Below are positions 3,429 to 56,637 of a DNA stretch of 64,000 nt, one piece after another. The notes beneath the pieces are model-generated. The model saw only the letters and a list, made by a program, of their open reading frames with translations. It had not been told where the DNA came from and did no database searches. Origin of the DNA: Minisyncoccia bacterium (GTDB lineage Bacteria; Patescibacteriota; Minisyncoccia; Phycocordibacterales; UBA9973); the NCBI GenBank assembly GCA_965656375.1, contig CBFHKH010000001.1, positions 708,291 to 772,290 of the forward strand, written 5' to 3'. A program made the translations under genes and the position numbers. Position 1 is the first letter of the stretch; every line of letters begins with the position of its first letter.

Positions 3429-5369
3429 ATGATAACTGAAGATCTTATCGACTATATACGAACAAAAAGAAAAGAAAATATAACAGATGATGAAATCACT
3501 TCACGACTCCTCCGTGCCGGATGGCATGATGCTGACATTACAGAAGGATTTCAAAGAATTACTCCCCCGGCGATTATTCCAAAAGCTTCTCCCGCCGCCG
3601 CGCTGGTACCTCCCATTGTGCCTCGTACACCAAAAGCTATTGTATTAGAACCACAAATCGAAGAAGATGATATTCCGGAAATCACTGCTACTGAACCGAC
3701 CTCTTATAAAATTCCCAAACCTGAAGTTGTAAAATCTACTGTACAAACAAGTTTTTCTCCGCAAAACTCTAAAGATGTGAAGCCCCTCTTTACTACTGAA
3801 GCGCCAAGGGTAGAACTAACTCCGACACTTATTCCAAAGGTGGCGCACCCTATACCTACTCAAAATAGTATCTCTCCAAAGAAGCCTCTTCCAGAAAGTC
3901 CTCTCATCAAAACTTTCTCAAGTGATATTCAAAAAGCAGAAGCGACCATCACCGAAGAATCAGTACCGAGCGCACGAAGGAAGATTGCTCGCAGTATCAT
4001 TATTGTTCTTGTCATTGGTCTTATTGGCGGTGCAGCATTTGCATTTCTAAAAGGATATATCTCATTTGCATCATTTATTAAAAAAGATCCAAAAGTTCTC
4101 CTCCTTGGTACCCCATCTCATCTTTCATCGCTTTCATCATATAGATCAGACACTACTATTACAGCTTCTTTCCCGTCAGTTGCAAATATCACAAATGGTC
4201 TTATTAGTGGAAATGTAGTTACATCTAAAGATACAGATTCAGTCTCGATTGATATAAAAAGTACTATACACAACAATTCTTCTAGCGCTTCCCATGCGCT
4301 TTCAGATCACGCGTTTCATATTAGAAGTTCACTGATACAAAATGATATTGATGTTGATTTGAAATATAATGGTACTACTTCTTTTATAACGATACCTGAT
4401 CTTAGTAATCTTTTTGGGGAACATGCACCGCTCTCGGGTCTTGTGGCAGTGGGGGATACTGAGTTTGATGAACTTCTGTCTCTCGTGCCAATACAATATA
4501 GAGATATGATACGAAATACTGATTTTTATAAAATGAAATCAAACGGGATTCCACCATATGTGATCAATAGCCTCAAGGTTTCCTTGAAAGAACTCATCGA
4601 TAGTGCAGATGTTTCGGAAAAACCAAAAGAAGTTATACAAGGGATAGATACATACCATTATATATTGAGTGTTGATCGAGCTGATACTAAAAAATTCCTC
4701 ATTTCTTTGGCCGATATTTTCATCACTACGCTTTCGGAGACTCAAAAGAAAAATCTTGAAGAAGCGCTCGGAGCATCGAATTTCGATACGATCGAGGTTT
4801 GGGTAGGTACGGATGATTCTTTGGTTCATCAATACAAATTCTCACTTTCGGTCCCACTCTCAAAGGTGATAAATTTAGAAGACAAAGGGATTGATGGCAA
4901 TACAGTAACATTTACATGGCAGTCGAGTGTATATGATTTCAATCAAGCTACATCAGTGCTTCCTTCGGAAACTGCGACGCCAGTATCTGACTTTGTTAAG
5001 CTTGGACTTGATAAGAATATTAAAACCACGATGGCATCCTTTATTACTGCTTCTAAGACGTTTCGAAATGCTCTCGGATCATATGGTAAAACCAATACGG
5101 GAGGAAGCTGCGTAAATCCAAGTGCGGGATCTCTCTTCTCTCCTGTCGGACATACGAAAGGTGCAGCGACTTCTGTTGGAGCTATCGCACATACTATGAA
5201 TATACTTGTCGCAAATCCAACCGGCGAAGGTTCCTGTCTCTCGACGCCGACTGCGTGGGCGATGGCGTTCCCGCTTGCAAGTGATCCGACCTCTTCGTAT
5301 TGTGTCGATAGTACTGGCTCATCTCGTATTCGTACATCTCCTCTTACGACAACGTTGTGTGATAAATAA
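3429..5369 (+). CDS. large membrane-anchored protein: short cytoplasmic N-terminal domain, Pro-rich linker, single TM helix, about 430-aa extracellular Ser/Thr-rich domain with C-terminal Cys pairs
   Basis: TM segment IARSIIIVLVIGLIGGAAFAFLKGY. The N-terminal motif …DDEITSRLLRAGWHDADITEGF… resembles a recurring small N-terminal domain of Gram-positive membrane proteins. No enzymatic motifs. Confidence 0.5.
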   Translation: MITEDLIDYIRTKRKENITDDEITSRLLRAGWHDADITEGFQRITPPAIIPKASPAAALVPPIVPRTPKAIVLEPQIEEDDIPEITATEPTSYKIPKPEVVKSTVQTSFSPQNSKDVKPLFTTEAPRVELTPTLIPKVAHPIPTQNSISPKKPLPESPLIKTFSSDIQKAEATITEESVPSARRKIARSIIIVLVIGLIGGAAFAFLKGYISFASFIKKDPKVLLLGTPSHLSSLSSYRSDTTITASFPSVANITNGLISGNVVTSKDTDSVSIDIKSTIHNNSSSASHALSDHAFHIRSSLIQNDIDVDLKYNGTTSFITIPDLSNLFGEHAPLSGLVAVGDTEFDELLSLVPIQYRDMIRNTDFYKMKSNGIPPYVINSLKVSLKELIDSADVSEKPKEVIQGIDTYHYILSVDRADTKKFLISLADIFITTLSETQKKNLEEALGASNFDTIEVWVGTDDSLVHQYKFSLSVPLSKVINLEDKGIDGNTVTFTWQSSVYDFNQATSVLPSETATPVSDFVKLGLDKNIKTTMASFITASKTFRNALGSYGKTNTGGSCVNPSAGSLFSPVGHTKGAATSVGAIAHTMNILVANPTGEGSCLSTPTAWAMAFPLASDPTSSYCVDSTGSSRIRTSPLTTTLCDK

Positions 5370-9606: not shown

Positions 9607-10248
9607 ATGGAGCGTTACCTCAGATCAATTTTCCCAAAAGACATACTCATCGTCTTTATTCTCACAGTCGCCCTCATTATAGGGAGGATTACTCTTTTTC
9701 ACTCATACTACTTTGTATATTTACTTTGGAATATATTCTTGGCACTTTTACCATTCATGCTCAGTTTGGTTCTTCTTTCGTATGCAAAAAGAAATAAATT
9801 ATCAACATTAGTATTTATTATCGGTGGCATTATCTGGCTACTCTTATTGCCTAATGCACCGTATATAGTCACCGATCTTATTCATATCGGCAAGGGCAGG
9901 GGTGCGGCGATACTCTTTGATACCCTCCTACTCTTTAGCTCAGCATGGCTTGGACTCCTCTTTTTTATGCATTCGCTTTCCCACATTGAGAAGATCATTG
10001 TTGAAAAATATGGAAAGCGTATTGCACAGATAAAAATACCGTCAATCATAGCACTCGTGAGTATTGGGGTATATATTGGGCGGAATTTACGCTTTAATAG
10101 CTGGGATATTTTTAATCCGTCACTTTTTGAGGATACCTGGCTAGCATTTACGCATCCGGTGCATTTTAACCAAGCCCTCCTCTTTATTGTTCCATGCTTC
10201 TTTTTCCTTTGTATGATCTACTTCTCGTGGAAAACTAGGCAGCAATAG
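9607..10248 (+). CDS. integral membrane protein (DUF1361-like)
   Basis: About 6 TM helices. PNAPYIVTDLIH segment. Assignment from memory of the family, low certainty. Confidence 0.4.
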   Translation: MERYLRSIFPKDILIVFILTVALIIGRITLFHSYYFVYLLWNIFLALLPFMLSLVLLSYAKRNKLSTLVFIIGGIIWLLLLPNAPYIVTDLIHIGKGRGAAILFDTLLLFSSAWLGLLFFMHSLSHIEKIIVEKYGKRIAQIKIPSIIALVSIGVYIGRNLRFNSWDIFNPSLFEDTWLAFTHPVHFNQALLFIVPCFFFLCMIYFSWKTRQQ

Positions 10249-11149
10249 CCTTCTTTGATTTAAAGAAGAAGTAGGCGATGATAACGAATGTAACTACAGG
10301 GGATACAAGGGCAGGAATATGCACTCCGAATCCATCAGTAACCATGATCGCACCGAGTGCAAATATTGAATACATAGCACCATTCTTGAGATAAATGTAT
10401 TTTTTGATTCGATCGATATTGCCGATCGTGAGCTTGCGCAGTACAAACGCGCCAAGTCCATTACCGATTAGTATGAGGGGGATAGAAAGAGTAAATGCAA
10501 ATGCACCGAGTACTCCATCGATAGAGAATGTCGCATCGATAATCTCGAGGTAGAGGATCTTGGACATGTCGCTCATATTGCTGCGTCCTTCAACGAGTTC
10601 ACGTTCTACTTTTTCTGCATTCTCTTTGAATCCGTGAGTGATGAAGAACGCTGTGGATCCGATCACTGCTCCGAATGCAAGCATTGGACTAATTTTCATT
10701 GCATACCATACGATGGTCGCAAGTATGATAGAAACAGTCGCAAAGAACCACACCCCATGTCTTTGAAAGAATTTCTCTCCACGTAAACCAAAGTTTTTCT
10801 TCTCGAGGAAAAGCCAGTGGAAAAATAAGAATACAAGAAATACTCCACCGCCCATCAAAAGTATCGGCGCCGCTCCTTCTATCGCTGTGTGAACCGAAGG
10901 GTCATTTGAGAATGTTGCTGTGAGTGCTCCCCATGGACCGATACTTGGCACTGATGCCCAGATTATTGCCCAGGGCAAAAGTCCTCGCACGAGAAAAACC
11001 GCAATGAAGAACCCCCAGAGGAGGAACCATCTTCGAGCTTTTTTGCCCATTGTACCCAAGACTTCTGCATTGATAACAGCATTATCAATACTTGAAACGA
11101 TTTCAAAGAGACAAAGTCCGAGAACAGTAATAATCATTGTGGTAATCAT
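10235..11149 (-). CDS. TerC/DUF475-family integral membrane protein
   Basis: Multi-TM. Contains an EIVSSIDNAVINA segment (the S.DN motif typical of TerC/DUF475). Confidence 0.5.
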   Translation of the reverse strand: MITTMIITVLGLCLFEIVSSIDNAVINAEVLGTMGKKARRWFLLWGFFIAVFLVRGLLPWAIIWASVPSIGPWGALTATFSNDPSVHTAIEGAAPILLMGGGVFLVFLFFHWLFLEKKNFGLRGEKFFQRHGVWFFATVSIILATIVWYAMKISPMLAFGAVIGSTAFFITHGFKENAEKVERELVEGRSNMSDMSKILYLEIIDATFSIDGVLGAFAFTLSIPLILIGNGLGAFVLRKLTIGNIDRIKKYIYLKNGAMYSIFALGAIMVTDGFGVHIPALVSPVVTFVIIAYFFFKSKKAIAA

Positions 11150-12444: not shown

Positions 12445-14160
12445 ATGAACAGTGAATCCCGTACGTGTCAGAATTGCTCCACCGAGTTCATTATCGAACC
12501 GGACGATTTCGCGTTCTATGAGAAGATGAAGGTCCCACCTCCCACATTTTGTCCAGATTGCAGGAATGTTCGTAGACTAACCTTCCGTAATGAAAGAGTC
12601 TGGTATCGCAGAACATGTGCTGCAACTAATCAGTCTATTTTATCAATGTTTGCCCCGGATGGGCCATATACTGTTTATGAAGAAAAGTACTGGAAGAGCG
12701 ATGCCTGGGATCCAATGGATTATGGCAAGCAGTATGATCCTAATAGAAGTTTCTTTGAACAACTTGATGAGTTGTTTAAAGTGGTTCCTCATCCGAACCT
12801 TATCCAGAAGAATAACGTTAATTGCGAATATTCGAATTACACTCTCAATGGTAAGAATTGTTACTATTGCGCCAGTTTCGATGAAGTTGAAGATAGCTCA
12901 TATTGTTTTACGAATAATACGCGAATAAAAAACTGCTTGGATCTGCATGTCTCAGCAGAATCTGAATATTCATACGAACTCATTGATTGCAAGAAATGCA
13001 ATCGCGTTGCATTTGCACAAAATTGTGAAGGATGCGTGAATTCGACATTTCTCTATGATTGCCGAAACTGTACAGATTGCTTTGGATGCGTAGGTTTGAG
13101 AAATAGGCAATATTCTATCTTTAATGAACAATATACAAAGGAAACATACAAAGAAGCACTCAAGCAAATCTGGGATGGGGGATATGTTGCATTTTTGCAA
13201 GCTCGCGATGCATTCAATGAGCTCAAGCTACAAATTCCACATAAGTTCTCAAACATTTTTAATTCAAATGATGTTTCCGGAGACAACATCGCTAATGTCC
13301 GCAATTGCCATTTCTGCTATGTGGCAAAGGACAATGTTGAAAATTGCAAATATTGCTATCGTGTTTGGGAAAACACAAAAGATGGGTGGGATACGTACTG
13401 TGCATGGAAAGGATCAGAGCTTTTCTATGAAGCTCACAGTATTATCGGGCAAAGAATCCTCTTTTCTCTCTATGTATGGGGAGGCCACGATATCGAATAC
13501 TCATACAACTGCTTTGACTGCAATAATATTTTTGGCTGTGTTGGTTTACGGAATAAGTCCTATTGTATTTTCAATATTCAGTACTCCAAAGAAGAATATC
13601 AAGCGTTGATCTCAAAAATAAAAAGCGATATGCTTGAGCGCAAAGAATATGGCGAATTCTTACCAAGCAGTATGTCCCCGTTTGCCTACAATGAAACAAT
13701 TGCCCAAGATTACTTCCCGTTATCTGAAACTGAAATCAAGCAAAAAGGCTACAAGTTCAGGCCAGCAGCGGAGAAGCACTATTCAGTTTCGCTTGCAACT
13801 GAAAATATTCCAGACAAAATTTCTGAAGTCGACGATTCTATACTTAATGAAGTCATTGCGTGCGAGCACGGAGGACACTGCTCCGATCTTTGTGCTACAG
13901 CATTCAAGATGACAAAAGATGAGCTTCAATTTTACAGAACTCTCAATTTACCTCTTCCACGCCTCTGTCCGAGTTGTCGCCATTTCAATCGTGTAAAATT
14001 AAAAAATCCCATGCAGCTTTGGGAACGAACATGTATGTGCGATAAAGCAAATCATTTTCATGGTGAAAATGCATGTTCAGAGAATTTCAAGACTCCGTAC
14101 GATCCAGCTCGACCGGAAATAATTTACTGCGAACAATGCTATCAAGCAGAAATCTTGTAA
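12445..14160 (+). CDS. Cys-rich multi-zinc-ribbon protein, paralog 1 of 3 (571 aa); no signal peptide
   Basis: N-terminal module CQNC…FIIEPDDFAFYEKMKVPPPTFCPDCR…RN…Y.R.C. Two internal CxxCxxCFGCVGLRN(K/R).Y modules. C-terminal module C…FKMT.DELQFYR.LNLPLPR.CPSCRH…YCEQCYQAEIL. Clearly homologous to 14419..16122 and 21318..23057. Confidence 0.6.
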   Translation: MNSESRTCQNCSTEFIIEPDDFAFYEKMKVPPPTFCPDCRNVRRLTFRNERVWYRRTCAATNQSILSMFAPDGPYTVYEEKYWKSDAWDPMDYGKQYDPNRSFFEQLDELFKVVPHPNLIQKNNVNCEYSNYTLNGKNCYYCASFDEVEDSSYCFTNNTRIKNCLDLHVSAESEYSYELIDCKKCNRVAFAQNCEGCVNSTFLYDCRNCTDCFGCVGLRNRQYSIFNEQYTKETYKEALKQIWDGGYVAFLQARDAFNELKLQIPHKFSNIFNSNDVSGDNIANVRNCHFCYVAKDNVENCKYCYRVWENTKDGWDTYCAWKGSELFYEAHSIIGQRILFSLYVWGGHDIEYSYNCFDCNNIFGCVGLRNKSYCIFNIQYSKEEYQALISKIKSDMLERKEYGEFLPSSMSPFAYNETIAQDYFPLSETEIKQKGYKFRPAAEKHYSVSLATENIPDKISEVDDSILNEVIACEHGGHCSDLCATAFKMTKDELQFYRTLNLPLPRLCPSCRHFNRVKLKNPMQLWERTCMCDKANHFHGENACSENFKTPYDPARPEIIYCEQCYQAEIL

Positions 14161-16404: not shown

Positions 16405-19002
16405 ATGACAATAACCATCACCAAGAGAGACGGTACAAAAGCATCTTTTAATGCAGATCGAATCAACAAATCCATAGAGCGCGCATGCTATGGTATGACC
16501 GATCCTATCAGTAAAGTCATTCAGATCGCGACAGAAACACGACTAACTCTCTACGATGGTATCACTACCGAGGAACTTGATCTTGCGACGATCAACGCTG
16601 CGCTCCAAAATACGCAGTATGATCTTGAATTCGACAAGATTGCGACTCGGCTTCTCCTCAAAGTTATCTACAAGAAGGTGATGGGAGACTATGATCCTGA
16701 TAACGAAGCTGCGCTTATCACAAAAGACGAATTTGCAAAGCTCCATGGAGAGCATTTCAAGGAATATATCCTTGATGCTGTTGAACGCAATCTTCTTGAT
16801 GCACGTATGGCGACATTGTTTGATCTCGATCAACTTGCGGAGAGTCTCAATGTTCTCAATGATGAACTCTACAAATATTCTGGACTCTCGACGATGCTCA
16901 ATCGCTATCTCATGAAAGATGAGAAGCAGTCTCCTCTTGAAACCCCGCAATATTTTTGGATGAGAGTAGCGATGGGTATGTCGCTCTCTGAGAAAAATCC
17001 AACAGAGTGGGCGAAAAAATTCTATGCAAAGATGTCTGCACTTGAATATCTTTCTGCTGGCTCTTCAAACATTGGTGCAGGAACTCCAAAACCAAAACTC
17101 TCAAACTGTTTCTTGATGGAAATTCATGATGACATGGAACACATCGGTAAAACTGTTTCTGACGTGCTCCTTCTTTCAAAAGCAACCGGTGGTATTGGTC
17201 TATCTGTCACAAAACTCCGCGCTGAAGGTTCACTCCTTAAATCAAACAACACTGTTTCATCTGGACCAGTTCCATTCATGCATATCATCGACTCTGCTGT
17301 TCGCGCAGTGCAGCGCGGAGGCAAGAAAAAAGGCGCACTCTGCTTCTACATGGAGAACTGGCATTTGAATTTCCAAGACTTTCTCGATTTGAAACAGAAC
17401 AATGGTGATGACTATCGTCGTGCCCGTACGGCAAATACTGCTGTCTATATATCAGACGAATTTATGAAGCGTGTGATCGCAGGGGATGATTGGTATCTCT
17501 TTGATCCAAAGGAAGTTATAGATCTCAATGAGCTCTATGGCAAGGAATTCTCCAAGCGATATAACGAATACGTCGAGCAGGCAAAAGCAGGTCGCATAAA
17601 GCTCTATACGGTGCTTCCTGCCCGCCAGCAATACAAGAATATCCTTATTTCTCTCCAGACGACTTCACACCCGTGGCTTACCTGGAAAGATACGATCAAT
17701 GTTCGTGCGCTTAACAACAACACTGGTACGATCCACTGTTCGAATCTCTGTACGGAGGTCACGCTTCCAACTGACCGCGACAATGTAGCAGTTTGTAACC
17801 TTGTATCTATCAATATCGCTCGCCACATCGTAGCGGGACAGATTGATTGGCACAAGCTTGAGGATAGTACACGTCTTGCGATTCGCCAACTCGACAATCT
17901 TGTCGACATCAATGAACTTCCAATTCCAGAAGCTCGTCGCGCAGACTCAGAGAATAGAGCAGTTGGACTTGGACTCATGGGATTCTCTGATGCGATCGAA
18001 CAGCTCGGATATTCATACGAAGATAAAGAGGCGCATGATTTTTCTGACCAAGTATTTGAATTCATCTCCTACATGGCGATCGATGAAAGTGCAAATCTTG
18101 CGGAGGAGCGCGGTGCATATAAAAATTTCAAGGGATCAGAATGGTCAAAGGGCCATGTGCCGATCGATACGATGGACAAGCTTGCGCTTGAACGTGGACG
18201 CGAACTTCTTACAAAGAAAGATTCTGCAAAACTTCTCCCTGTTCTTGATTGGGACAAGATCCGCGCAAAAGTGAAGAAGGGAATCCGTAATGCGACTCTT
18301 CTTGCGATTGCACCAAATGCGAACATCGGCCTCGTTGCAGGGACTGCACCAGGTATCGATCCGCGATTTGCACAGATGTTCTCTCGCAACAAAATCTCTG
18401 GTAAATATCTTGAAATCAACCCTAACCTTGTGAAAGCGCTTCAAAAAGAAAAACTCTGGGAGACAGTTCGCGAACAGATACTCGAACATCATGGAGATAT
18501 TGAAGAGATTGCTGAAATCCCAGATACAATCAAGCGCATCTACAAGACTTCATTCTCAGTTTCTCCATATGCATATATTGAAGTCGCAGCTCGTGCGCAG
18601 AAGTGGGTAGATATGGGAATCTCACGCAATATGTATCTCGACATCCGAGATATCGATGAGATCATGAATATCTATACGAGTGCATGGGATCGAGGACTCA
18701 AGACTACATACTATCTCCATATGAAACCTCGCCACACTGCTGAGCAATCTACCATCAAGGTCAATAAATCAGAAGCGATGGGACGCCGTGGATTCGCAGC
18801 TCTCCGACAGGCAAAAGTCACACCTGTACTGGCAGAAGAAAAAGTCCTTGAAGAGAATGGTGTCATGCCACTCTCTGCGCTTCCAAAAGGAGAAAATATA
18901 GCAGATGTTGCTCGAATCCCGAGTAAAGAAGCCGAAGAAGCATCGCATATCTGCCTCCCTGAAGATCCTAATGATAAGTTTTTGTGTGAAAGTTGTCAGT
19001 AA
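16405..19002 (+). CDS. nrdA: class I ribonucleotide reductase alpha subunit with N-terminal ATP-cone
   Basis: ATP-cone N-terminus (ITKRDGTKASFNADRINKSIERAC). 865 aa. C-terminal Cys pair (…CESCQ). Immediately followed by nrdB. Confidence 0.85.
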   Translation: MTITITKRDGTKASFNADRINKSIERACYGMTDPISKVIQIATETRLTLYDGITTEELDLATINAALQNTQYDLEFDKIATRLLLKVIYKKVMGDYDPDNEAALITKDEFAKLHGEHFKEYILDAVERNLLDARMATLFDLDQLAESLNVLNDELYKYSGLSTMLNRYLMKDEKQSPLETPQYFWMRVAMGMSLSEKNPTEWAKKFYAKMSALEYLSAGSSNIGAGTPKPKLSNCFLMEIHDDMEHIGKTVSDVLLLSKATGGIGLSVTKLRAEGSLLKSNNTVSSGPVPFMHIIDSAVRAVQRGGKKKGALCFYMENWHLNFQDFLDLKQNNGDDYRRARTANTAVYISDEFMKRVIAGDDWYLFDPKEVIDLNELYGKEFSKRYNEYVEQAKAGRIKLYTVLPARQQYKNILISLQTTSHPWLTWKDTINVRALNNNTGTIHCSNLCTEVTLPTDRDNVAVCNLVSINIARHIVAGQIDWHKLEDSTRLAIRQLDNLVDINELPIPEARRADSENRAVGLGLMGFSDAIEQLGYSYEDKEAHDFSDQVFEFISYMAIDESANLAEERGAYKNFKGSEWSKGHVPIDTMDKLALERGRELLTKKDSAKLLPVLDWDKIRAKVKKGIRNATLLAIAPNANIGLVAGTAPGIDPRFAQMFSRNKISGKYLEINPNLVKALQKEKLWETVREQILEHHGDIEEIAEIPDTIKRIYKTSFSVSPYAYIEVAARAQKWVDMGISRNMYLDIRDIDEIMNIYTSAWDRGLKTTYYLHMKPRHTAEQSTIKVNKSEAMGRRGFAALRQAKVTPVLAEEKVLEENGVMPLSALPKGENIADVARIPSKEAEEASHICLPEDPNDKFLCESCQ

Positions 19003-19115
19003 ATAGCCATTAGCAGTTAGCATTTAGCTACTAGCCAATGCACATTATAATCTAACTAGTCTTTCAGTAATTACTCGCTAAATGCTAGGAGCTAATCGCT
19101 AAAAGCTAACTATAT
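19003..19115 (+). promoter_or_regulatory. heptad-repeat leader: (TAGCNNN)x5 - 38 nt containing TATAAT - (NGCTANN)x5 - 5 nt - ATG of nrdB
   Basis: tagccat tagcagt tagcatt tagctac tagcc … cattataat … cgctaaa tgctagg agctaat cgctaaa agctaac tatat ATG. Exact period 7. The two arrays are mutually complementary (TAGC/GCTA). The same design recurs before fusA and, 3' half only, before rplK. Confidence 0.55.
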
Positions 19116-20129
19116 ATGATTTTAGGAAAAGCATCACCTGAAGATATGAATCTTCACCCCATGCATTATAAGTGGGCATATGAACTCTATAACCAAGCAG
19201 TGCGTAATACCTGGTTCCCGCATGAAATAGCTCTTGGTGAAGACCTCGTTGACTGGAAAGCAATGACCGAAGACGAGCGCCATGCTGTCGAATTTTTGAT
19301 GGCATTCTTTAATCCAGCAGAGCTTATTGTTAATCGTAGTCTAGCTCTTGGGGTGTACCCGTATATCAAAAGTCCAGAATGTCACTTGTATTTGGCAAAG
19401 CAGATGTTTGAAGAAGCGAACCACTGCGTATCATTTGAATACGTACTTGAGACATTCCCACTCGATCGAGATCGTGTTTACAATGTCCACCTTGAGCTTG
19501 ATTCAATGGTAAAGAAAGAGGATTTCATCAAGAAATATCTGATTCGCATGACCGAAGATACACTTGATATCGAAACCGAAGAAGGAAAGAAAGATTTCGT
19601 CCGTAATCTTGTTGCAACAAATATCGTCATGGAAGGAATCTGGTTCTACTCAGGCTTCATGGTTGCACTTTCATTCCGTCAACGCAATCAACTCCGCAAC
19701 CTCGGTTCAATGATCAACTGGGTTATCCGTGATGAGTCTCTTCACTTAAAATTCGGTATTAATTTGATCCACACTATTCTCGAAGAAAATGCAGAAATTC
19801 TTACGGAAGAATTCGCAAACGAGATCCGCGATATTGTCATTGAAGGAGTGAACCTTGAAGTTGCATACAACAAAGATTTATTCCCGAAGGGTATTCTCGG
19901 GCTCAATGCTGACTATGTGAACCAGTATGTACAGTATGTAGCTGACCGCCGTCTTGAAGAGCTTGGCCTTGCTCCGCACTTTAATGTCACAAATCCTGCG
20001 AAATGGATGGCTACCTCTACTGACGTCTATGAGCTCGTAAACTTCTTCGAAGCGCAGAATACAGCATACGAAGTTGATGCTCATGGTCACAACAATGAGA
20101 AGAAGCATGACAAAAAAGAGGAAGAGTAG
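19116..20129 (+). CDS. nrdB: class I ribonucleotide reductase beta subunit (di-iron/tyrosyl radical)
   Basis: 337 aa, E..H iron-ligand spacing (…EEANHCVSFEYVLE…), directly downstream of nrdA. Confidence 0.8.
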   Translation: MILGKASPEDMNLHPMHYKWAYELYNQAVRNTWFPHEIALGEDLVDWKAMTEDERHAVEFLMAFFNPAELIVNRSLALGVYPYIKSPECHLYLAKQMFEEANHCVSFEYVLETFPLDRDRVYNVHLELDSMVKKEDFIKKYLIRMTEDTLDIETEEGKKDFVRNLVATNIVMEGIWFYSGFMVALSFRQRNQLRNLGSMINWVIRDESLHLKFGINLIHTILEENAEILTEEFANEIRDIVIEGVNLEVAYNKDLFPKGILGLNADYVNQYVQYVADRRLEELGLAPHFNVTNPAKWMATSTDVYELVNFFEAQNTAYEVDAHGHNNEKKHDKKEEE

Positions 20130-43028: not shown

Positions 43029-43062
43029 ACAAAACTCCCTTTTCGGGGAGTTTTGTTTTGAT
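43029..43062 (+). terminator. terminator-like hairpin aaaactccc-tttt-cggggagtttt after rpsG
   Basis: Perfect 10-bp stem with a T-rich tail. Confidence 0.6.
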
Positions 43063-43128
43063 TGCAAATTTTAGCTGTATATTGTATATTCTAGGGACAT
43101 TAAGACGCGAAGGTCTTTTTTTCTTTAC

Positions 43129-43220
43129 TAGCGACTAGCTTCTAGCACCTAGCTCCTAGTATAAGAATTTCAAGGTTTATTTATTACTGCTAGCAGCTAG
43201 AAGCTAGCGCCTAAAAGCTA
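43129..43220 (+). promoter_or_regulatory. heptad-repeat leader before fusA: (TAGCNNN)x4 - spacer with TATAAG - (GCTAGNN/GCTANNN)x5 - 6 nt - ATG
   Basis: tagcgac tagcttc tagcacc tagctcc tag-tataagaatttcaaggtttatttattact-gctagca gctagaa gctagcg cctaaaa gcta tttatt ATG. The arms are largely complementary (gcgactagcttctagc vs gctagaagctagcgc). Confidence 0.55.
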
Positions 43221-43226
43221 TTTATT

Positions 43227-45368
43227 ATGGAAAGAGATTATCCACTAGAGAAAGTTCGAAATATTGGAATTATCGCCCACATCGATGCGGGTAAGACTAC
43301 AACAACAGAGCGTGTGCTCTTTTATACAGGCGTGTCGCACAAGATCGGTGAAGTGCACGACGGTGAGACAACAACAGACTGGATGGAACAGGAGCGTGAG
43401 CGTGGTATCACGATTACATCTGCTGCTGTTACTTGTTTCTGGACTCCAACGTATGCAATAGGGGACAAGAACAAGAAGCATCGCTTCAACATCATCGATA
43501 CTCCTGGTCACATCGACTTCACTGTAGAAGTGAAGCGCTCCCTTCGCGTGCTCGACGGTGCTGTTGTCGTATTCGACGGCGTTGCCGGCGTTGAACCTCA
43601 GTCAGAGACAAACTGGCGCTATGCTGATGAGGCAAGTGTGCCTCGTATTTGTTTCGTGAACAAACTCGATCGTACTGGTGCATCATTTGAGCACTCATAC
43701 AAGACAATCCTTGATCGTCTTACAAAGAAAGCTATTCGCGCTCAGATTCCAATAGGCCTTGAAGATGGTCATGAAGGAGTTATTGATCTTCTCAAGATGA
43801 AAGCATACTACTTCGAAGGGGAAATGGGTAATAAAGTTATTGAAAAAGAAATTCCAGAAAACATGAAAGCTGATGCAGAGAAGTATCATGCAGAATTGAT
43901 TGAAAAGATCGTCGAACAAGATGATGCAGTCATGAACGAATACTTCGAAGGCAAGGTTCCAGATATCGATACACTCAAGAAGCTTATGCGTAAAGGCGTC
44001 ATTGCTAATGAAATTTTCCCTGTATTTGCAGGATCTGCCCTCAAGAATAAGGGTGTTCAGCTCGTACTTGATGCTGTCGTTGATTACCTTCCATCACCTA
44101 CAGATATTCCTCCGATCCCAGGTGTTGATCCAAATACTGATGAAGCTGTAGTACGCAAGGCATCTGATAGTGAGCCGTTCTCAGCACTCGCATTCAAGGT
44201 GGCAACTGACCCATTCGTTGGTCAGCTTATCTTCTTCCGAGTTTACTCAGGATCTATCGCTGCAGGTTCGTATGTATACAACCCTCGCACTCGCAACAAA
44301 GAGCGCCTTGGACGAATACTCCGCATGCACGCAAACGATCGTGAAGAAGTAAAGAAAGTGTACGCAGGTGAAATTGCCGCCGCAGTCGGACTCAAAGACA
44401 CCATCACTTCAGATACACTTTGTGATGAAGAGAATCCAGTCGAGCTTAACCGTATTGTATTCCCAGAACCAGTTATCAACCTCCGCGTAGAGCCAAAGAC
44501 AAAGGCAGACCAGGAGAAAATGGGTATGGCGCTTAATCGTCTTGCTCAAGAAGACCCGACATTCAAAGTATCAACTGATCCAGAAACAAACGAAACTATT
44601 ATCGCAGGAATGGGAGAACTTCACCTTGAAATTATCGTTGACCGTATGAAACGTGAGTTCTCAGTCGAGACAAACGTCGGCAAGCCACAGGTAGCATACC
44701 GCGAGACTATTACAGGTGAAGCACAGGTAGAAGGCAAGTACATCAAGCAGTCAGGAGGCCGCGGTAACTATGGTCACGTAAAGATCAAGATCAAGCCAAT
44801 GGACCTTACTGTTGATCCAGATGATCTTCCAAAGAACGTAAAACGTGAAAAAGGATTTGAATTCATCAACACTATCAAAGGAGGCGCAATTCCACAAGAA
44901 TACATTCCAGCCGTTGAAAAGGGTCTTAAAGAAGGTCTTGATCGTGGAGTTCTTGCAGGATTCAAGCTTGAGAACGTCTCTGTAGATCTCTATGACGGTT
45001 CATACCACGATGTTGACTCAAACGAAATGGCTTTCAAGATTGCTGCTTCTATGGCGATTCAGGATGCAGCAAAGCTTGCAAAACCTGTGATCCTCGAACC
45101 TATGATGCAGGTAGAAGTTATCACTCCAGACAAGTTCATGGGAGATGTGACTGGTTCGCTCTCATCAAAGCGTGGAATTATCGAAGGTATGGAAGCACGT
45201 GGTATGAATCAGGTAGTGAAAGCTGTCGTTCCTCTTTCTGAAATGTTCGGATACATGACAACCCTCCGCTCAATGACCGAAGGCCGTGCAGGATTCACTA
45301 TGGAATTCGTCCGCTACGATATAGTCCCACAGAATGTTGCTACAACTATTATCGAGTCTCGCAAATAA
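43227..45368 (+). CDS. fusA: translation elongation factor G
   Basis: G-domain motifs [18 protein letters not shown]. 713 aa. Follows rpsL-rpsG. Confidence 0.9.
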
Positions 45369-52094: not shown

Positions 52095-52132
52095 TTCTGC
52101 TAGCAGCTAATTGCTAGTGGCTAAAAGCTAAA
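52095..52132 (+). promoter_or_regulatory. GCTA heptad array (GCTANNN)x5 ending 7 nt before the rplK ATG (3' half of the motif seen before nrdB and fusA)
   Basis: gctagca gctaatt gctagtg gctaaaa gctaaac attt ATG. No TAGC 5' array upstream here. Confidence 0.5.
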
Positions 52133-52137
52133 CATTT

Positions 52138-52566
52138 ATGGCAGCTAAAAAAATAACTAAAAAAGTAAAATTACAAATCCCTGCAGCGAAAGCTACTCCT
52201 GCGCCACCACTTGGTCCTGCGCTCGGTCAGGCTGGAGTAAACATCGCTGAATTTTGTCAGAAGTTTAACGCGATGACTCAAGATATGGCAGGTGAAACAG
52301 TCGGATGTGTTATCTCAGTGTACGAAGATCGTACCTATGATATCCAGGTAAAGACTCCTCCAGTTGCAGGCCTAATATTCAAAGCAGCAGGCATCGAAAA
52401 GGGTTCAGGCAAGCCAAATACTTCAAAGGCAGGCAAGATCACCAAAGCCCAGGTTCGCGCAATCGCCGAGAAGAAGATGCCAGATCTCAATGCGAAAGAT
52501 ATCGAAGGTGCAATGAAGATCGTGGAAGGCTCAGCTCGCTCAGCAGGAATCACTGTTACAGACTAA
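52138..52566 (+). CDS. rplK: 50S ribosomal protein L11
   Basis: …[26 protein letters not shown]… is canonical L11. Confidence 0.9.
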
Positions 52567-52567
52567 T

Positions 52568-52610
52568 ACAAAACAACAAAACACCCGCATATGCGGGTGT
52601 TTTGTTGTTG
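52568..52610. terminator. bidirectional terminator acaaaacaacaaaacacccgc-atat-gcgggtgttttgttgttg
   Basis: About 19-bp palindrome directly after rplK. Confidence 0.7.
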
Positions 52611-52653
52611 ACATATTTGTGATTTAAAGTAGGATGAAGAAAAACATACAACT

Positions 52654-56238: not shown

Positions 56239-56637
56239 CTAATTAGTATTGATAATGATATCGCCAAGTGCGACTGCCCCTGTGGTCTTCTGGTATATGA
56301 CTTCGAATTTCTTTTCTGCGGACTTTCCAAATTTGTCTTGTGCGTCGATCGTAACGACAGAAAGTCCAGGAATGAGAGCAAGCGGCTCTCTAAATGTCCC
56401 ATCTTTATCTATAAATATTTCTCGGCCATTGAGTGTAAGCATGACAGCATTCTTTGCTTTTCCCTTGATCTCTATAATAGGGGAAGTATCATCTCTTTTA
56501 ATTTCTGCAGTAATTTGCACTCCTTTCCACAAGAATCCCATCTTGGAATATGTGAAGATCCCAATAGCGATAAAAAGCAGCAAACATGACGTTATTCCTA
56601 CCCACCATTTTATATTTTTCTTTTTTACTTTTTTCAT
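56239..56637 (-). CDS. hypothetical membrane-anchored protein (132 aa)
   Basis: N-terminal signal anchor ([18 protein letters not shown]) followed by a beta-rich domain. Lies between ftsK and recA on the same strand. Confidence 0.45.

Follow-up and report, generated by a model that had tools for sequence, protein, structure and literature searches.

We describe a small family of heptad-periodic repeat arrays lying directly before the start codons of three housekeeping genes in a 64-kb window, the whole stretch of DNA analysed, of an 840-kb contig (CBFHKH010000001.1). The array first noticed occupies the spacer between nrdA and nrdB (19003-19115), and it appears to be one copy of a lineage-specific leader module that recurs before fusA, encoding elongation factor G (EF-G), and before rplK, encoding ribosomal protein L11. 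All three leader arrays repeat the core GCTA(A/G)NN five times and end 7, 6 and 7 nt before the ATG of nrdB, fusA and rplK, respectively. The arrays are real and far beyond chance. Tentatively, we favour the reading that in mRNA they form a single-stranded, multi-site platform over the upstream part of the 30S footprint and so control initiation on leadered mRNAs, a reading that we consider possible without yet calling it probable.

Direct reading of the nrdA-nrdB spacer, together with shuffle statistics, confirmed the arrangement reported by an earlier sequence-only reading, namely (TAGCNNN)x5 followed by an inverted (GCTANNN)x5, each with a period of exactly 7 nt. The stop codon of nrdA (TAA, 19000-19002) is separated from the upstream arm by a single a, and the 41-nt centre between the arms, aatgcacatTATAATctaactagtctttcagtaattactc, contains the TATAAT box that had also been noted. 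Tandem Repeats Finder (TRF) scores for the two arrays are 31, with 69-91% matches. The fusA and rplK loci were absent from the earlier reading; fusA carries both an upstream TAGC arm and a leader array, and the nusG-rplK spacer has no inverted TAGC arm upstream of its leader array. Each of the five arrays in the window has five units. Across these 25 units, 98 of the 100 core positions are intact and the spacers are near random, the fifth unit position being almost always A or G, and the three leader arrays all finish in (G/C)CTAAAAGCTA. Over 34 nt, the arrays of fusA and rplK share 85% identity; the centres of the elements are unrelated.

Shuffled sequences gave an expectation of 0.14 matches to the three-unit pattern TAGCNNNTAGCNNNTAGC (up to one mismatch), against 16 found in the window. 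The corresponding figures were 1.3 and 17 for the two-unit pattern, and 0.00 and 12 for the five-unit pattern with up to three mismatches. When arrays of at least four units with a 4-mer core were sought at periods 5-12, only period 7 occurred (the TAGC, GCTA and CTAG arrays and one T-rich run). The T-rich run (TTTT x4, 56608-56632), upstream of a minus-strand ftsK-like gene, is probably low-complexity sequence. We found no degenerate copies elsewhere in the window and no further arrays in the 8.7 kb beyond its right end, which together with the window make up the source sequence examined. Cores and spacers contrast, the number of units is constant and the terminal units are shared, a combination that requires either a sequence-specific reader or a templated origin. 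The recurrence of the arrays and their invariant 4-5-nt cores with free spacers call for a sequence-specific reader, and to this extent the earlier proposal of an RNA-level device or an array-binding protein holds.

Table 1. Features at the three array-bearing loci of the window
Feature	Position	Strand	Basis and remarks
nrdA (ribonucleotide reductase alpha, 865 aa)	16405..19002	+	ORF (open reading frame) list; NCBIfam NF005101, 1251 bits
nrdB upstream arm (TAGCNNN)x5: TAGCcat TAGCagt TAGCatt TAGCtac TAGCc	19004..19036	+	Sequence and pattern matches; cores 5/5 intact
TATAAT box in the 41-nt nrdB centre	19046..19051	+	Sequence; not called by promoter scan
nrdB leader array: GCTAaat GCTAgga GCTAatc GCTAaaa GCTA	19077..19108	+	Followed by actatat (7 nt); ATG at 19116
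nrdB (ribonucleotide reductase beta, 337 aa)	19116..20129	+	NCBIfam NF007186
Intrinsic terminator 3' of rpsG (S7)	43029..43056	+	Terminator scan; kept in relative L207; similar one after S7 in L206 and L209
fusA promoter-like site, TTGCAA-17-TATATT	43062..43090	+	Promoter scan and alignment; conserved in relatives; upstream of both arms
Small hairpin (AGAC/GTCT) and T-run, fusA 5' untranslated region (5'UTR)	43103..43122	+	Sequence; in alignment, counterpart at same place in L206, L207 and L209
fusA upstream arm: TAGCgac TAGCttc TAGCacc TAGCtcc TAGT	43129..43160	+	Sequence and pattern matches
fusA leader array: GCTAgca GCTAgaa GCTAgcg CCTAaaa GCTA	43189..43220	+	Followed by 6 nt, then ATG
fusA (EF-G, 713 aa)	43227..45368	+	NCBIfam TIGR00484
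rplK leader array: GCTAgca GCTAatt GCTAgtg GCTAaaa GCTA	52099..52130	+	Followed by 7 nt, then ATG
rplK (L11, 142 aa)	52138..52566	+	NCBIfam TIGR01632

All arrays in the window lie in transcribed DNA, that of nrdB inside the nrdAB operon and those of fusA downstream of the promoter listed in Table 1. The sequence-only reading had proposed that the central -10 box launches a transcript carrying only the leader array. The fusA promoter, conserved in relatives, precedes both arms, and a central box is thus not required to account for transcription. The TATAAT of the nrdB centre was not called by the promoter scan, which found no acceptable -35; the best candidate, TTTAGC at a spacing of 17 nt, matches at 3 of 6 positions, and the box is possibly a weak internal promoter at most. 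At fusA, the upstream arm can also be read as CTAG x5 and merges into TATAAG (43160-43165). The small hairpin and T-run just 3' of the conserved fusA promoter (L207:3420-3445 in a relative) resemble an attenuator or a 5' stabiliser. The rplK gene stands alone (52138-52650), with no rplA; the next features are a terminator-like hairpin and, after it, an HD-domain gene resembling YfbR. The hairpin spans 52572-52609, and the scan calls a terminator there on the opposite strand; relatives carry a D-Ala-D-Ala ligase gene in the position after rplK. Inside the nrdB leader array there is a six-codon upstream open reading frame (ATG CTA GGA GCT AAT CGC TAA, 19082-19102) whose stop codon, at 19100-19102, lies 13 nt before the nrdB ATG. 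Termination-reinitiation through this frame was ruled out as a general mechanism because the fusA leader contains no ATG. Known invertases need longer invertible segments than 28-41 bp, and an invertible promoter switch was rejected because the centres, at 28-41 bp, are too short for them.

The setting of these leaders is an organism that appears to do largely without Shine-Dalgarno (SD) pairing. Because the closest NrdB and EF-G homologues carry the names Candidatus Paceibacterota or Nomurabacteria, we take the host to be an uncultured, ultra-small bacterium of the Candidate Phyla Radiation (CPR), which the terminator-like hairpin after rplK and the lack of rplA fit. An SD-like motif was found upstream of 1 of 53 window genes. 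At 18 of the 53 gene starts, and in none of 53 control windows, the ATG is preceded by a -10-like box at a distance of 5-16 nt, and about one third of the genes are probably transcribed as leaderless mRNAs. These boxes are of the TATAMT type, often with a preceding TG (for example at 3429, 10235-11149 on the minus strand, 12445, 23544, 33382, 38038 and 50317). The sole 16S rRNA 3' end available for the clade belongs to a relative and not to the source genome (L150:1-140). It reads GGATTAATTCAAAC, compared with GGATCACCTCCTTA in Escherichia coli, or in fuller form ...GTGGATTAATTCAAAC in place of ...TTGGATCACCTCCTTA, and the CCUCC anti-SD is absent. Given the lack of SD sites and the missing CCUCC in this relative, the few leadered mRNAs would need another means of ribosome loading or regulation, and nrdB, fusA and rplK are among the few window genes with a genuine 5' leader or intercistronic spacer. 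Alternative SD-type pairing of the arrays with 16S rRNA was rejected, since the L150 tail GGAUUAAUUCAAAC contains neither CCUCC nor a UAGC that could pair with GCUA. The motif AATTAAT, complementary to this tail, is rarer than expected in the window (12 vs 25), and four of its seven plus-strand copies precede called gene starts (23056, 28030, 39940 and 60707) by no more than about 35 nt. A related string, ATTAATC, occurs 11-12 nt before the rplK ATG in L202 and L207.

In the platform reading, a module of five heptads, with core GCUA(A/G), two free positions and the ending ...CUAAAAGCUA placed 6-7 nt before the AUG, would cover about -39 to -7, the upstream part of the 30S footprint. Once transcribed, the array may serve as an unstructured, multi-site and sequence-specific platform. 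Its reader could be a multimeric or multi-domain RNA-binding factor, or ribosome-associated proteins of the S1/Csp type, and would govern initiation at all three genes. The inverted TAGC arm would reflect the origin and spread of the module as a foldback-type palindrome, and in RNA it may cover units 1-3, with units 4-5 and the AUG still accessible. The data show that the arrays exist and recur in exact phase, that cores and spacers contrast, where the arrays stand relative to the AUG, that SD sites are lacking and that the arrays arose recently; action on RNA and an influence on translation are what we infer. We rank this reading first because the fixed AUG distance, the SD-less organism and the recurrence across the clade point to translation initiation. 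The near-equal ATG distance of the same module at three loci, and 6 nt at a fourth in the related contig L139, supports it. We also count in its favour the intact cores, the constant number of five units, the placement of all arrays in transcribed DNA and the scarcity of SD-like motifs, together with the lack of structure in leader-only RNAs, the enrichment of period 7 in Paceibacterota DNA, the GCTA arms near ATG or GGAGG in a phage contig and a published analogue with a like proposal, the last four described below.

RNA folding bears on both this reading and the one offered before. The nrdB spacer folds with a minimum free energy of -28.3 kcal/mol (z = -2.15) and the fusA leader with -35.6 (z = -3.0). 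In nrdB, the main helix of 12 bp consists of the exact 11-nt inverted repeat TAGCATTTAGC and one closing G-U pair, accompanied by helices of 6 and 4 bp; fusA forms a perfect 12-bp helix, CTAGCTTCTAGC. The proposed pairing of the arms in a read-through transcript thus appears in the predicted fold, but not as a ladder of 4-bp stems with 3x3 internal loops. The last two units and the AUG are unpaired in the predicted folds of both nrdB and fusA, contrary to the proposed sequestration of the nrdB initiation region. Leader-only RNAs of nrdB, fusA and rplK are no more stable than shuffles (z = 0.16, 0.81 and -0.12), and the whole nusG-rplK spacer is no more structured than shuffles (z = +1.19). Neither strand is favoured: the antisense strand of the nrdB element is more stable than the sense strand (-33.6 vs -28.3 kcal/mol), and among 24 comparable elements of other genomes with one adjacent gene, the sense strand was more stable in 12 and the antisense strand in 12. 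A sense-strand hairpin selected to sequester the start is unsupported by this 12 vs 12 split and by the better antisense fold at nrdB.

A broader hairpin hypothesis, the closest to the earlier proposal, is that the arms form an interrupted helix of about 22 bp that acts as an RNase III site or 5' stabiliser and would make nrdB independent of nrdA, and fusA of its long leader. The z-scores of nrdB and fusA, each with its 12-bp helix, agree with it, as does a different long hairpin at the same nrdA-nrdB position in other relatives. RNase III is reported to be retained in CPR bacteria (PMC12641178), and RNase III-targeted 5'UTR elements lie next to heptanucleotide repeats in Haemophilus influenzae (PMC12721329). 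However, rplK lacks a partner arm and its leader does not exceed shuffled sequence in structure, the antisense strand folds better at nrdB, just one or two spacers are complementary between the arms, and with the AUG and the last two units free nothing is sequestered. The strand comparison and the lone arm at rplK also tell against an RNA device built on arm pairing as first proposed, and we consider the hairpin hypothesis very doubtful. Known Rfam cis-regulatory RNAs were rejected for want of a relevant covariance-model match: at the gathering threshold the window yielded tRNAs only, and at E<=1 nothing at nrdB and a chance-level rimP match upstream of the fusA arrays.

Comparison with relatives indicates that the arrays are young or recently acquired. 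They are absent at the loci covered in the closest relatives (L202, L203, L206, L207, L209, L213 and L216), whose NrdB is 96-98% or EF-G 93-95% identical, and we date them as recent because genomes with such near-identical proteins carry none there. These relatives show empty sites or other fillings instead. The S7-fusA distance is 9 nt in the closest relative L202, the rplK leader differs from that of the window, and the nrdA-nrdB spacer is either 23 nt long or occupied by a palindromic hairpin element of about 80-90 nt that is unrelated and for which Rfam gave no match. This hairpin (aaattctattctgaaaaaagtc...gacattttttcataaaagaattt) occurs at L203:3330-3450 and L213:9885-10000 and also in L122, L126, L142, L146 and L148. 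Among about 78 metagenome relatives, the only clear case is L139 (contig Ga0209542_10004420; 85% identity), in which a TAGCx4...GCTAx5 element ends before the nrdB ATG. Three others (L147, L153 and L130) have degenerate elements before nrdB with the centre AAATTATTAA. A role of the arrays as a conserved regulator of nrdB was rejected on these counts, the arrays being absent in seven closest relatives, clear in 1 of about 78 metagenome relatives and degenerate in three. Among the findings that the sequence-only reading had named as refuting it, absence elsewhere in the genome is contradicted by fusA and rplK, and lack of conservation is what the closest relatives show.

The way in which the elements sit in their loci suggests an alternative, namely a selfish foldback element resembling a MITE (a miniature transposable element with inverted repeats). 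It would be a non-autonomous unit, mobile or duplicative, with a transposase or recombinase binding its heptad arms at subterminal sites. Such a recent invader would survive in tolerated 5'UTRs, the rplK copy would be a half element, and any effect on expression would be incidental. We regard this as rather unlikely, yet several observations fit it. Presence is patchy among relatives with 93-98% identical proteins. In the fusA alignment, the window shares the conserved promoter-like site with L206, L207 and L209; it alone has the TAGC...GCTA element, a clean insertion of about 92 nt into this conserved 5'UTR, about 8 nt before the ATG. Compared with relative L216, the segment 19003-19064 (upstream arm and centre of nrdB) is bracketed by direct repeats TCAGTAA. 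The inverted arms at nrdB and fusA are what terminal inverted repeats would look like, folding favours neither strand, and the same junctions are insertion hot spots in relatives, with the other palindromic element in the nrdA-nrdB spacer elsewhere. On the other side, the window copies are not near-identical: their centres show no relationship, and the identity of 85% over 34 nt is confined to the arms of fusA and rplK. The candidate target-site duplications, TCAGTAA at nrdB and TA or TTTA at fusA, are ambiguous, being indistinguishable from chance in AT-rich sequence. The same ATG distance at three independent sites is not accounted for, annotated plasmid and phage record collections contained no match to similar DNA, and we know of no bacterial transposase family with heptad subterminal repeats. 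If true, this alternative would reveal an unusual type of bacterial transposon and a marker of very recent change in a CPR genome.

Other insertions were seen in relatives. The S7-fusA junction of L206 (L206:9045-10000) holds a 168-aa ORF, and that of L209 (L209:8625-10000) three small ORFs, one with weak PaaX_M and Cas2-like matches. In L213 (L213:12456-16582), a reverse-transcriptase gene (RVT_1), a 572-aa ORF with no known function and a PLD-domain gene are inserted 3' of nrdB-dsbB, and they are not in the window.

Heptad periodicity before nrdB is not confined to the GCTA core. Other lineages carry TAGATNN, GTTANNN, CCTAGNA or CATTTTG arrays there, and in about 1 Mb of Paceibacterota DNA, no period other than 7 was enriched among those not divisible by 3 (24 arrays vs 2-8). 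Nearly all Paceibacterota arrays of at least four units lie directly before nrdB; of the three-unit arrays, several stop short of the start codons of nrdB or other genes by 3-14 nt. In nrdB upstream regions, lag 7 gave 51 recurrences against 6-14 at other lags, with 44 at the harmonic lag 14; this signal was absent overall upstream of other Paceibacterota genes. In L187, GTTA heptads precede nrdB (13028-13045) and a putative RpiB-like gene, judged by its N-terminus (9892-9986). In L180, TAGATAT-type heptads precede nrdB (942-959) and GTTCGTA heptads precede a 351-aa gene (~4200-4240).

Beyond the phylum, the five-unit pattern was found at no fewer than 120 loci of species-representative genomes from many phyla and at no fewer than 119 loci of viral contigs. 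Among the matches listed from both sets, many are perfect microsatellites. Between about a quarter and a third consist of a variable-spacer array accompanied, at a distance of 5-130 nt, by an inverted arm, and in many of these the two flank a GC-rich hairpin. Polarity among the matches listed is strong in genomes, with 24 TAGC...GCTA against 1 GCTA...TAGC, and weaker in viral contigs (22 vs 12). The genomic polarity is as terminal inverted repeats would predict and favours the foldback alternative, as do the several copies found in some other genomes or phage contigs (L050, L078, L259 and L336). In phage contig L259, nearly every intergenic region read contains a TAGC...GCTA element; one ATG follows the end of the GCTA arm by 6 nt, and at another gene this arm abuts a GGAGG site. 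Both L259 (L259:3900-10570) and L336 show, in nearly all intergenic regions read, the order TAGC arm, GC-rich hairpin of the GGCGCGCC type, AAGTAACTT and GCTA arm; one of the arms often adjoins the next ribosome-binding site (RBS) or ATG. A gene-ward orientation bias of GCTA arrays in other phyla was considered and dropped, as it falls from 15 vs 3 to 5 vs 3 among the matches listed when arrays with a partner arm are left out.

The equal conservation of the two orientations of the 4-5-bp core also invites a DNA-level explanation, in which a protein binding arrays in double-stranded DNA, such as a polymerising ribbon-helix-helix dimer, occupies both arms and represses or halts transcription towards nrdB, fusA and rplK, a small regulon related to growth. 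The nrdB layout, with five units on either side of a centre of about 41 bp bearing a -10-like box, suits it, as do the polar arrangement and the lack of strand asymmetry in folding. The earlier argument that a 7-nt period excludes operators is weak. Heptad repeats in promoters are known protein sites, as in the TTTTGAT repeats of the ctxAB promoter, the omega repressor of plasmid pSM19035 binds heptad arrays, and R1 ParR binds two blocks of five parC iterons flanking a promoter core of about 39 bp. However, at fusA and rplK the likely transcription start (the rplK promoter being our own reading of the sequence) precedes the arrays by 30-125 nt, so that they do not cover the promoter, a fixed distance of 6-7 nt to the ATG would have no reason, and rplK has a single arm. 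Pfam and NCBIfam searches of about 30 window proteins, moreover, showed no suggestive cognate regulator gene beside nrdB, fusA or rplK, and close relatives lack the arrays. On balance, we judge operator arrays to be unlikely.

Several of these results count against the platform reading as well. The cores of the inverted TAGC arm are as well conserved as those of the leader array, which an RNA-binding protein specific for GCUAR would not explain and a reader of double-stranded DNA or a transposase would. Relatives with 93-98% identical NrdB or EF-G lack the arrays, which are therefore dispensable for expressing nrdB and fusA. Heptad cores differ between lineages and even within one genome (L180), arguing against a single dedicated factor, and in other phyla the orientation of arrays that lack a partner arm is not biased towards genes (5 vs 3 among the matches listed). 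The same protein searches yielded no candidate binding protein among the window proteins. Finally, adjacency to the ATG could mean that an expanding, stop-rich repeat filled the only free space in a compact genome.

This last point leads to an explanation without any reader, in which heptanucleotide slippage arrays expanded in free intergenic space, were tolerated and are now decaying. The many perfect microsatellites among the five-unit matches listed and the other heptads before nrdB in relatives agree with it, and heptamers are given as the most abundant long simple repeats in Mrazek 2007, as cited in PMC4679880. Yet neutral decay would strike all seven positions equally, whereas here invariant cores stand beside near-random spacers, and three loci share the same core, unit number and terminal CTAAAAGCTA; we therefore disfavour this explanation and hold it to be highly improbable. 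Phase variation through such a simple-sequence repeat (SSR) was rejected because the units are imperfect and their spacers differ.

The platform, the foldback element and a reader of double-stranded DNA are not mutually exclusive. Most observations would fit together if a portable leader module were spreading and being retained at sites where it functions. In a bolder and distinctly speculative version, which we think improbable, GCUAR arrays with five sites at 7-nt spacing would dock an array-reading factor that replaces SD-anti-SD pairing, to load or gate ribosomes on leadered mRNAs, in Paceibacterota without an anti-SD, and the polar TAGC...GCTA foldback modules of phage contigs and several phyla would be a new class of horizontally spreading cassettes for translation initiation or intercistronic insulation. 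SD-independent start-site choice is still unresolved for large parts of the bacterial tree, CPR included, and most CPR lineages have no genetics. A compact module recently placed before three growth-limiting genes, for deoxynucleotide supply, EF-G and L11, offers a concrete experimental handle, and the period-7 arrays before nrdB together with the intergenic TAGC...GCTA elements of phages suggest a wider, essentially undescribed class of intergenic repeats.

Among known systems, the ring-shaped proteins HutP and TRAP of Bacillus read 3-nt cores at fixed spacing in leader RNA, HutP recognising UAG-N4 (a 7-nt period) in two blocks and TRAP (G/U)AG at a 5-6-nt period. Unlike the present arrays, they act on the choice between terminator and antiterminator and need UAG or GAG, whereas the leader units here are mostly GCUAA (4 of 5 in nrdB); the window showed no terminator after the arrays and no HutP or TRAP gene. 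The arrays bound by omega and ParR are alike in having short, non-palindromic units at a non-helical (7 bp) or otherwise fixed period, in direct and converging order, and the two five-repeat blocks around the promoter core of R1 parC resemble the nrdB layout. In contrast, they belong to plasmid partition or copy-control loci with the regulator alongside, their units being contiguous (omega) or 11-bp direct repeats (parC). The arrays described here are chromosomal and occupy the 5'UTRs of housekeeping genes, where their distance to the ATG is fixed, with no linked regulator seen, and relative to promoters, the nrdB arms flank a TATAAT without a good -35 and the fusA and rplK arrays are downstream of likely promoters. 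Start-associated sequences of Cluster K mycobacteriophages likewise place a conserved, repeated motif directly before many start codons, sometimes with upstream inverted repeats, but as a single, non-periodic 13-bp unit containing the RBS, in phages of SD-using hosts.

Small elements just upstream of genes are also exemplified by the Correia MITEs of Neisseria and the hmw repeats of H. influenzae, a heptanucleotide SSR with an RNase III-targeted 5'UTR (PMC12721329). Both are co-transcribed, with RNase III-cleavable hairpins, and they change how strongly the gene behind them is expressed. Correia elements occur as near-identical copies that have defined inverted terminal repeats and show TA target duplications, whereas the present copies share cores only; the hmw repeats are perfect and phase-variable, whereas slippage switching is unlikely with the imperfect repeats found here.

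Contrary to the sequence-only reading, which did not recognise a described motif, heptamer repeats just upstream of start codons have been published, although the repeat strings found here occur in no paper of the library searched. The closest described analogue is the TAACTGA direct repeats found before start codons in marine Beggiatoaceae, some cyanobacteria and Bacteroidetes (MacGregor 2015, PMC4679880), and a regulatory role in transcription or translation has been suggested for heptamer repeats close to start codons in Nostoc. The TAACTGA repeats occur as 2-6 forward copies within a few nt of start codons, comparable to the 7, 6 and 7 nt here, and they overlap the expected RBS in genomes where canonical RBSs are rare, much as SD-like motifs precede 1 of 53 genes in our window. 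They are found at many loci per genome, ribosomal-protein genes among them (here nrdB, fusA and rplK), with a patchy phylogeny, and they carry stop codons in all three frames. Their function is unproven, with translational control through S1, Csp or CsrA-like proteins proposed (PMC4679880). The window contains no TAACTGA arrays, and the sequences are unrelated. The published heptamers are identical, whereas here a 4-5-nt core (GCTAR) is fixed and 2-3 positions vary, an inverted arm or palindrome accompanies the array at two of three loci, and the host is a CPR bacterium without SD sites. The kind of array is thus itself known and its mechanism unsolved; new here are the fixed core with variable spacers, the frequent inverted partner arm and the occurrence in an SD-less CPR lineage.

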